This document shows positions 9,001 through 12,000 of a stretch of DNA of 64,000 bases, one piece after another. Position numbers: made by a program. Source of the DNA: an uncultured Nitrososphaerota archaeon. Lineage in GTDB: Archaea; Thermoproteota; Nitrososphaeria; Nitrososphaerales; Nitrosopumilaceae. Each line of letters begins with the position of its first letter. The first letter of the stretch is position 1. Location of the stretch: contig CAWGPD010000004.1 of the NCBI GenBank assembly GCA_963824385.1, positions 1-64,000 of the forward strand. The letters run 5' to 3'.

Positions 9001-12000
9001 ATAGGCCTGGAGAATTGATATCCTGTCCAAAGTGTAGTCAGGATTTTTGTGGCACGTGTTTTAAACAACATGCCCACTAAATCAAAAAATAAGTAGGCCG
9101 TCTTTCTTACTTGATAACATGTCAGCTTTTGGAGGAGATGATGTTGATACTCTAGCTTTGATGTTTGATAAATTACAATATATTTTCAGGGGGTATGATG
9201 CATATATTCAAGCATTTACCGAGATGCATTCTCTATACAAGCAAGGCAAGTTGTCTGAGAGGGAATATTATCACGGGATGACTGACGCCGTTCTAAAATA
9301 CTCTGCACTTGAATTTCTAGGGCTCAAATCCATGTTTGAGATAAAAAAAGCATTAAATCGAATGAACAGGCCATCATCAGCCCGTAATTCGATGTCTACA
9401 TTGGCATCGGGAACTGTTTCTGGACAGTCTGGTCCTCAAAACTCTATTGCCTCATTTATCAGTGCGAAAATCCTTCCGGGCAGGGATGGTTTGGTGCAAA
9501 AAACTACTGGGGATGGCAAACCATGTATTTCATGCGGGAAATTATCCGACCCAACAACAAAGTTTTGTAGAAACTGTGGCAACAAATTCTAATTTGTTTA
9601 AAATTTCATGTGATAATTCAAGAACTAAATAATGCTCACTCTGAAAATAATTTGCGGATCGGTAGTCTAGCCTGGTTAGGATATCGCACTCACACTGCGG
9701 GGGTCGCTGGTTCAAATCCGGCCCGATCCATTGATTTTTTAAAAATAGATGATTATCATGAATATCTCATAGAAAATTTCAAATCATTGTAGAGAATAGA
9801 AAATAAAATGAAAGGAAAAAAAGGGCTTGTAGTAGGCATTGCAAATGAACATTCCATAGCATGGGGTTGTGCTCATGCTCTCCATAAAGCAGGAGCGGAG
9901 CTGGCCGTTACGTATCTAGACGAAAAAACCAAAGGCTACGTGGCGCCCCTTGCTGAAATCGTAGGCGCAGAGATTTTCGCTCCTTTAGACATTACAAATG
10001 AATCTCATCTTGTGTCTCTAATGGACGAGATTAAGAATCGGTGGGGCCATCTTGATTTCCTTTTACATTCGATCGTTTATGCACCAAGTTCAGATCTTCA
10101 TGGCCGGGTGGTGGATTCCTCCCGTGATGGTTTCTTGACTGCAATGGATATTTCATGCCACTCTCTGATACGGCTTGCCAAGGCTGCCGAGCCGCTAATG
10201 GATGGTGGTGCGATTTTGACGATGAGTTACTACGGGTCTGAAAAAGTTATTCCTCATTATGGTATAATGGGTCCAGTAAAAGCCGCCCTTGAGGCTACCA
10301 TGCGTTACCTTGCAGTTGAGCTGGGGCCAAAGAATATCAGAGTCAATGCACTGTCGCCAGGGCCTGTCAAGACACGTGCTGCCTCAGGTTTGACTGATTT
10401 TGACAGGCTGATGGAAATGGCTGCAAGCACCTCTCCATTGAGCAATTTTGTGACGCTTGAACAGATCGGTCAAGCATCAGTCTTCTTGATGTCTGACAAT
10501 GCGAAAAACATTACGGGACAAATTATTTACGTTGACAACGGCTACCACGTTAAGGGGTAAACACCCACAAACAGTTTTGATTGCGTCTTACCTTGGAACA
10601 TCAAATTAATATGCGAACTATTTTTTTCTGTAAAAGTGACCGGAAATCATACAGTTGTGGTATAATTGATTATCGCAAATGATAATCAAATTCGACGTTT
10701 TTATGGAATGAAAAAGTGTATGGTTCTATGGATACATATGTTAAAGATATGATGAAAAAACAAATTGTTTCAATCGACGTATCACTTACAGTCCAAGAAG
10801 CTGCCAAGATAATGGAGGATACTGGCGTTAGTTGCCTGGTTGTTACCAAAGAAAATGTACCTGTAGGTATGATTACAGAAAGAGATTTTGTAACAAGGAT
10901 TGCATCTCTTGACAAGTCTTCATCTACTCTAGTACAAAATATAATGTCTGTACCCTTGATAACGTCTAGTCCTAGTGATACTGCAAAAAAACTTGCCGAA
11001 CTGATGAAAGAGAAAAAGATACACAAGGTGCCTATAATGGAAGGAAGTCATCTGATAGGAATTGTTACCTCAACCGATTTGATTACAAAGTGTATCATTG
11101 ATTCAGATTTTGAAATGAGACAAATTTGTAACTCTTTTGCGCAAATGGCATTTTGATTATTTTATACACAAACTAATGTTGGAAACAGAATACAAAATGA
11201 CTCATATTCACTATAGATTTTTTAAACTAGATACATACATTTTTTATTTTTAACAGGTATTGTACCGTACATCTCAACAAATTATTTTATGTGTATTTGC
11301 GTCTCATTCACCTCTCATGAATTCATGACCACACTAACATTGTTACTGAACAATGTGTCACAATTCTTTATATCGACTTTCCAGTAACTACGGCATGAAT
11401 ACACAAAGTCTAGTAGCGCACAAAAAGTTGCTTGCTATCATAATTGGTGTGGCAATATTTGCCACAGCAGGAATGGGCGCAGCTTCTGCACAAGTGTCTA
11501 CAACAAACACAAAACCAACAATCACTGGTTCAATCAATATTGAACAGACACTCATGTCAAAAGTGACAGTAACTTTCGCTGCTGCCTCAACAACTGCAGC
11601 AGGTGGTTCAACTGCATCACCAATTACAGGTGGACAAGTGATTAGTGGTAACTTGAAACCAATGCAAGGTTCTCTTGTATATGCCTTCAAAGTAATCGAC
11701 AGTAATAGCAAGGTATACTCTGTAATTGTCGATCCTTCAAGTGGAGCAGTGCTCTATGTCTCTCCAGGACACACATTCCATGGATTTGGAATGGGTGGTC
11801 ACCAAGGAGGAATGAAGGGTGGTTTCAAACATGGTGGACAGGGATGGAATAAACAAGCACCATCTACAAGCACAGCACCACCAGCAACATCCTAGTAGTT
11901 TCGAAAGAAACTCTCTTTTTTTATTTTTTTAACTAGAAAACAATATTTTTTGTTTCTAAATTATACCATTCTTAAACCATTATTTTTAAAATATAGCTAT

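Follow-up and report, generated by a model that had tools for sequence, protein, structure and literature searches.

The window analysed here, the whole stretch of 64,000 nucleotides at C4:1-64000 of genome G000, contains two genes for exported PepSY-domain proteins, each of which is preceded by a two-box operator and a BRE/TATA-like element (Table 1). The first operator, at 11335-11358, reads TAACATTGTTA-CT-GAACAATGTGT and is followed by cacaattctttatat. It consists of two imperfect 11-bp palindromes with a period of 13 bp, and the pair is jointly two-fold symmetric as well. The ATG at 11395 lies at +60 from the first operator base; another ATG at 11353, proposed as PepSY start by an ORF finder, falls inside the operator and is an unlikely start. 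The second PepSY gene begins with an ATG (20193) downstream of the operator at 20133, and its product is 79% identical to that of the first. Between 21056 and 23607, the window furthermore encodes what appears by eye to be a family B DNA polymerase, which is divided into two ORFs of 583 and 323 aa that overlap in different frames; this looks like a frameshift or an assembly error.

Table 1. Features of the two PepSY loci in the window and of the candidate regulatory genes outside it.
Feature	Position	Strand	Remarks
Distal 11-bp box TAACATTGTTA	11335..11345	+	
Promoter-proximal 11-bp box GAACAATGTGT	11348..11358	+	13 bp after the distal box
BRE-like CAA and TATA-like TTTATAT	11359..11373	+	CAA at 11361-63, TTTATAT at 11367-73
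Exported PepSY-domain protein	11395..11895	+	166 aa; Gly/His/Met-rich tail; PF03413, 24.5 bits (cut-off 24)
Second two-box operator TAACATTGTTA-CT-GAACAAGGTAT	20133..20156	+	
BRE-like CAA and TATA-like TTTATAT of the second PepSY gene	20157..20171	+	
Paralogous exported PepSY-domain protein	20193..20729	+	178 aa; PF03413, 27.1 bits
Candidate regulator, HTH_45 protein	C4:456883-457185		101 aa; TTG start; outside the window
Membrane partner	C4:457226-457756		Behind the regulator gene; outside the window

Operator sites and target genes across the genome

The operator is real and is not restricted to the window. A preliminary description had listed 12 sites in G000, every one of which was present on re-examination, and the starts at +60 (seven sites) and +64 (two sites) were reproduced; one of the +60 starts is a GTG, and one of the seven sites additionally has an ATG at +54. 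The remaining three listed sites have starts at +54, +114 and +146. The site C1:157150, listed as an intact tandem, turned out to be a promoter-proximal box with a decayed distal partner. A matrix built from seven sites gave 16 strand hits of at least 20 bits in G000, which lie at 14 loci, all of them intergenic; seven of these loci are the training sites, which score by construction, four are their paralogues and three are independent finds. The reversed matrix gave one hit and eight column shuffles gave none each. Sites absent from the earlier list are C3:175039 (start at +64), C3:132260 (GTG at +58), C4:393105 (start at +61, 52-aa ORF) and the weak, decayed operator C4:176477 (minus strand, L008; start at +61). 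The target of the latter is a secreted-protein gene, which stops after 37 codons and seems to resume further on. Single boxes alone are not enriched at starts over the control in the genome-wide count of G000; with the BRE/TATA geometry added, 15 of 30 precede starts versus 4 of 24 in the control. Further single-box candidates precede secreted proteins at C3:141065 (+47) and C4:457845 (+52).

The targets in G000 comprise three PepSY proteins, three repeat-rich secreted paralogues, another secreted protein, an Ig-repeat protein, a TAT Rieske protein, a DUF6659-like protein, a MacB/FtsX-type exporter operon, an HTH_45 gene behind htrA, an HVO_0163-type regulator and a 52-aa ORF. These downstream genes bear out the earlier proposal that the regulon encodes mostly exported or envelope proteins, which suggests an envelope or surface signal. 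Across the fetched loci, 178 oriented sites precede genes for PepSY proteins (41), exporter ATPases (29), DUF6659-like proteins (22), an unassigned ORF family (19) and htrA-type HTH_45 proteins (18), a tally that is biased by the way the loci were fetched.

Several targets deserve separate mention. The secreted paralogues at C1:211124-212008, C2:188747-189286 and C3:175103-175870 carry short repeats containing His and Met and have the operator at +64; Pfam holds no family for the three. At C3:132237-132260 (L005:4359-5221), the operator precedes a gene for an HVO_0163-type double winged-helix regulator, which is followed by a small DUF7521-like membrane protein; the two are possibly a second regulator-plus-membrane pair, downstream in a cascade. 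A 76-aa protein without a Pfam family has the operator at +60 in many genomes of the genus (L018, L021, L022, L028 and L033), and no copy was found in G000. In one soil metatranscriptome, a fraction of 0.06 of the words is present; contigs over both PepSY genes reach a summed depth of about 500-1200 versus 0-8 elsewhere, and the bins just upstream are uncovered. Such contigs cannot reveal level, start or strand and were not counted as evidence.

PepSY and repeat-protein promoters are duplicated in G000. The suspicion that the three PepSY promoters are recent duplicates proved justified for 11335 and C3:189361, which have 114 of 120 upstream bases in common, but between 11335 and 20133 only 29 of 120 upstream bases are shared compared to 22 of 24 in the motif. 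The three PepSY promoters thus amount to only one or two independent sites, and the regulon stands without them. The duplications could also be taken to mean that the motif is a residue of promoter duplication, or else a core-promoter extension read by an alternative TFB or TBP, with no separate regulator; indeed, several TFBs in ammonia-oxidising archaea (AOA) are described as shifting with growth state in the accessible text of one study (PMC12448741). However, at least eight unrelated gene families carry the operator in G000, and the similarity between 11335 and 20133 begins at the motif edge. Moreover, a palindrome that comes in one to three copies and is tied to one winged-helix gene does not match the way in which TFB is known to read DNA. 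We consider both variants of this explanation highly improbable.

Register of the boxes and spread of the motif

The unit of the operator is a single 11-bp palindrome, TAACAwTGTTA, which occurs in one to three copies at a step of 13 bp and ends against the BRE/TATA element; the proximal box ends 2 bp before the CAA. The consensus of 124 oriented sites, which include orthologous and hence non-independent ones, is TAACAwTGTTm-nn-kAACAwdGTkT, with AA at +27/+28 in 96-97% and TT at +33/+34 in 96-98% of the sites. Among 183 distinct sites in the fetched loci, ATG starts peak at +60 (39 sites) and 59 more lie at +61 to +64; the reversed matrix found no site in the same loci. A survey of 353 G000 genes whose start is clear shows a general peak of TATA-like words with their ends at -25 to -22, together with a slight excess of AA at -35 to -33. 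The TATA distance behind the motif matches this general peak, so the element following the motif is an ordinary BRE/TATA of an apparently leaderless gene.

The position of the start depends on the number of boxes: it lies at about +47 with one box, at +60/61 with two and at +74/75 with three. In 16 of 20 loci, small divergent ORFs start at +45 to +50 from a lone box that is followed by CAA-like and TATA words, and these ORFs are, by eye, mostly Cys/His-rich. Among the ten Nitrososphaera loci in which a site follows the partner gene, nine have arrays with a third, degenerate unit and a start at +74/75, and one has two boxes and a start at +61. Other genera, in which the second box is degenerate and the distal box conserved, still have the start at +61. 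The AT-rich dyad and the start at +60/61 are also kept in two GC-rich genomes, G091 and G100. This 13-base ladder of starts is the strongest sign that the position relative to TFB matters. The geometry appears activator-like, as the preliminary description had proposed.

The strict pattern was found in 20 of 24 genomes of the genus and, with one hit each, in 2 of 16 genomes of other families. A wider pattern applied to 250 genomes of the family matched 28 of 28 genomes of the genus, 9 of 11 of one sister genus, g22, and 9 of 211 elsewhere; outside the two genera, the reversed control matched 39 genomes. Seven hits outside the two genera were inspected, of which three lie inside genes and four are intergenic. 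Three of the intergenic hits have starts at +60/61, one precedes an ABC ATPase gene and two are in GC-rich genomes; all four are in genomes that carry the candidate regulator described below, three of them within about 1 kb of it. The strict two-box pattern is thus concentrated in two genera, as had been noted earlier, but the confinement does not extend to degenerate two-box, single-box and three-box forms, which were found in the same register beside the candidate regulator in many genera of the Nitrosopumilaceae and in Nitrososphaera. A named cultured strain carries the island as well, with three sites beside regulator and partner (LN890280.1). Many of the multi-genome counts include some unpublished genomes (G011, G012, G019, G130, G233 and G279), on which no claim depends.

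The candidate regulator and its membrane partner

A strong candidate for the regulator, and the best one, is the HTH_45 protein encoded at C4:456883. Its gene is divergent from the operator at C4:456766-456789 and is the only copy of its subfamily found in G000, which is 86% complete. Gene maps of several genomes show this HTH_45 gene at the head of an island of boxes with PepSY, DUF6659 and exporter genes. The protein passes the cut-off of Pfam HTH_45 (PF14947; 30.9 bits, cut-off 25.5) and does not reach those of NCBIfam Sso10a (NF053610; 30.4 bits, cut-off 60) and Pfam PadR (18.3 bits, cut-off 27). The structural model is a winged helix with a pLDDT of 89; Foldseek places Sso10a-2 and AspA nearest to it, and VIA-align ties the fold with PadR and MarR proteins.

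The closest clade of the regulator (E<=1e-47) is present in 26 of 28 genomes of the genus, in one more of which it is cut by a contig end, in 7 of 11 g22 genomes and in none of the others among the 250. Members of the family were found in 23 of the 251 phylum genomes, of which 21 belong to the Nitrosopumilaceae, and in Nitrososphaeraceae records too; many Nitrosotalea records are among the nearest named relatives. The operator lies 93-209 bp upstream of the regulator in 27 of 30 closest-clade loci and is lacking in three. Of the 44 named Nitrosotalea-like records whose flank is long enough, 40 also have it upstream of the regulator; this set overlaps the 30 loci. With at most one mismatch allowed within 330 bases upstream, a box was found at 25 of 40 distant homologues (reversed control: 6 of 40), and 9 of 11 regulator loci that were fetched later and held out have one as well (control: 0 of 11). 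Because the kin are non-independent and either the motif or the regulator was used to fetch most loci, these counts overstate the linkage. Furthermore, two genomes have the pattern and no match to the regulator (G145, 86% complete; G185, 71% complete). Among 33 scored loci in L278-L311, mostly Nitrososphaeraceae records with several Nitrosopolaris, 11 encode a 76-80% identical regulator beside which no partner was found, and ten of these 11 have no box. The two regulator homologues that belong to other families in the phylum lack the box but have the partner.

The initial reading assigned the operator to another protein, the 95-aa HTH_45 protein encoded behind htrA (C4:354260) or its family, which would autoregulate: this gene is preceded by the operator at +60/61 in 16 loci, which are spread over 15 genomes, and a single more distant homologue also has it upstream. 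In the rows of the HTH_45 family, which were grouped by a quick tree of 95 columns that served no other purpose, the operator is present in 17 of 91 and absent from the other 74. However, the recognition helix is nearly identical in paralogues with other upstream motifs, and genome G022 (99% complete) carries the operator before a PepSY gene in the absence of this clade, with the C4:456883-type protein encoded next door. In addition, homologues with more than 50% identity were found only in the genus, in a search covering the genus and 16 other families, whereas the boxes beside genes of the C4:456883 type span the family and Nitrososphaera. These paralogue motifs, G022 and the spread of the C4:456883 clade lowered the initial reading to a very unlikely one, and the HTH_45 gene behind htrA looks like a target rather than the regulator.

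Other HTH_45 genes have conserved upstream elements of their own. The most conserved paralogue of the genus carries, about 70-50 bp before C2:204526, a direct repeat GTTCCGCT-n4-GTTCCGCT with a 12-bp period, which recurs at about 24 loci (among L061-L066 and L095-L111) and represents a second, separate operator. Another paralogue group has a conserved upstream palindrome (in G000 upstream of C1:19705), roughly ACCATTyTC...GAGAAyGGT (L085, L086, L088, L089, L092, L094 and L112), and a third group shows a different conserved element (L073, L074, L080 and L091). Near-identical winged helices thus seem to be wired into different regulons. In G015, the operator-bearing HTH_45 gene is frameshifted and the operator is intact (L120:2064-2407).

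In 73 of 84 non-redundant loci, a homologue of the membrane partner is encoded next to the regulator, either on the same strand or convergently. In same-strand pairs, a box lies at most 30 bases from the regulator stop in 37 of 51 cases, typically 47-53 bases before the partner start; in 10 of the 14 pairs without such a box, the two genes overlap or lie within 7 bases of each other. In G000, the ATG of the partner is preceded by a single box (457177-457187) at a distance of 49 bases. The box before the partner gene makes the partner itself a likely target. Autorepression of the regulator by single boxes in the convergent subgroup was considered and rejected: the boxes read away from the regulator, in the order box-CAA-TATA followed by a small ORF near +47.

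In each of the 55 aligned partners, two hydrophobic helices carry basic outer flanks, which by charge places both ends inside. The terminal helices are conserved. The outer loop between the hydrophobic helices varies in length between 17 and 183 residues and is rich in His and Met mainly in Nitrosotalea-like members; given this variation in length and composition, no ligand site is evident in the partner. No matching family was found in Pfam or NCBIfam, the structural model is poor (pLDDT 69, pTM 0.39) and the Atlas yields unnamed archaeal clusters only.

Copper is not supported as the signal, since most partner loops outside the two genera contain few His and Met residues and the data for N. 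viennensis are mixed. Under copper limitation, two of its four PepSY genes are up by about 1.3 log2, one is down by 0.9 and one is flat according to the accessible data (PMC7785015), in a data set in which half of the genes change and to which genes were mapped by annotation only. By annotation only, five of seven arCOG01063 HTH genes of N. viennensis, putative members of the regulator family, adjoin a membrane-protein gene of one of two overlapping groups, and two of these HTH/membrane pairs lie near PepSY genes.

The same protein and the same sites could also constitute a repressor system, in which a PadR/MarR-like protein blocks TFB at the BRE and the membrane protein acts as an anti-repressor capturing it on signal; SdpR/SdpI of Bacillus provides a precedent for such a capture. 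The structural tie with PadR-family proteins (Z 11-12.5, rmsd 3-4 Å over 92-96 residues) would fit a repressor, a dimer on a proximal box that stops 2 bp before the CAA could cover the BRE, and the box before the partner gene is equally compatible with derepression and positive feedback. However, a steric block would work without a register exact to the base, yet the one seen here persists from genus to genus and whatever the number of boxes, and in several genera it is the distal box, 26 bp from the BRE, that is better conserved than the proximal one. Moreover, sites of TrmB-type regulators upstream of BRE/TATA are associated with activation and those downstream with repression in the accessible text of one report (PMC4158304). 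Repression is therefore regarded as unlikely.

Proposed circuit and comparison with known systems

The motif, its period, its register to BRE/TATA and start, and the linkage of box, regulator and partner can be read directly from the sequences, and the following model is built on them. The HTH_45 protein C4:456883, a presumably dimeric protein of the Sso10a/AspA type, would recognise TAACAwTGTTA, with one dimer on the BRE-touching box and additional dimers upstream at 13-bp steps. The bound protein would help TFB onto the promoter and thereby activate transcription of the genes for PepSY, Ig-repeat and repeat-rich exported proteins, the TAT Rieske protein and the MacB/FtsX-type exporter, as well as small cytoplasmic proteins and at least one second-tier regulator, the HTH_45 gene behind htrA. 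The partner with its two helices would hold the activator at the membrane via its conserved cytoplasmic helices and free it upon envelope disturbance, and its induction by the activator would close a negative loop. Binding of the C4:456883 protein to the boxes is very probable, and activation rather than repression is probable; taken together, that this protein both binds and activates is rather likely. The chances that the partner controls the regulator directly are about even, and an envelope-type signal is an equally balanced proposition.

ECF sigma/anti-sigma pairs are a bacterial switch, and it is tempting to speculate that the circuit is its archaeal counterpart, widespread in AOA. The two-helix tether would release the winged-helix activator on envelope damage, perhaps by proteolysis, one to three stacked dimers would assemble with the box number setting the response, and the activator would induce its own tether; in acid-soil Nitrosotalea, the circuit would have grown into a two-tier surface-protein regulon. 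This analogy, taken as a whole, is tentative and rather doubtful.

AOA drive much of the nitrification in soil and ocean. A regulator-operator-regulon triple for AOA envelope genes was not found in the literature searched. In searches outside subscription papers, figures and bioRxiv supplements, the motif was found neither in the literature on Nitrosotalea promoters nor as a literal string, two relevant arCOG numbers were absent among the matches listed, and the operator is apparently undescribed so far. The finding provides a site and its targets together with candidates for the protein and for the membrane sensor, each of them small and testable in vitro, so that a palindrome, a small DNA-binding protein and a membrane protein make up a testable control circuit in nitrifiers. 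If the model is true, the protein would be one of few archaeal activators with a known site, would reveal a sequence-specific role for an HTH_45 protein and would offer a lead on membrane-to-transcription signalling in archaea without a DNA-binding response regulator.

Conserved upstream elements have been proposed as regulator sites in AOA before, namely two copper-linked motifs of N. viennensis (PMC7785015) and the amo upstream elements (PMC3379541). As given in the accessible text, the copper-linked motifs TTCSGSMTTTGWACYANT and RATTTAAABATAGATTTAAATAATAAS are, by eye, unrelated to TAACAwTGTTA, and that text assigns no regulator to them (PMC7785015). Published AOA promoters resemble those described here in that they are leaderless with the TATA element 23-24 nt before the start (PMC7785015, PMC3379541). 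The predicted fold of the candidate matches Sso10a-2 (TM 0.68, rmsd 1.8 Å). Sso10a proteins are described as chromatin-organising in the accessible text (PMC4941522), whereas the evidence on the candidate favours a specific operator together with a partner in the membrane. AspA of plasmid pNOB8, which has a similar fold, is described as binding with several dimers side by side to a 23-bp palindrome, which resembles the two boxes over 24 bp; however, AspA serves plasmid segregation together with ParB and ParA (PMC5120986), and the sites here are scattered at promoters. Neither parB nor parA was found beside the candidate regulator, whose neighbours are the genes for the membrane partner, DUF6659, PepSY and ABC exporter proteins.

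The closest parallel in arrangement is TFB-RF1 (PF1088)/PF1089 of Pyrococcus furiosus. According to the accessible text, the palindrome bound by TFB-RF1 lies immediately upstream of a weak BRE, and the protein recruits TFB and activates an ABC exporter (PMC5937170). In both systems, the regulator is encoded with a membrane protein of unknown function, the palindrome lies at a fixed distance directly upstream of the BRE, and the regulon includes an ABC exporter and the membrane-protein gene (PMC5937170). The motifs do not match, as TFB-RF1 has a single TCTGAANTTCAGA compared to one to three copies of TAACAwTGTTA at 13 bp here (PMC5937170). Furthermore, the gene order is reversed, the partner has two helices here instead of four, the exporter is of the MacB/FtsX type, and about 14-19 promoters are involved versus two operons in the accessible account (PMC5937170). 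Likened by arrangement, the system described here most likely works like TFB-RF1/PF1089, with a different motif.
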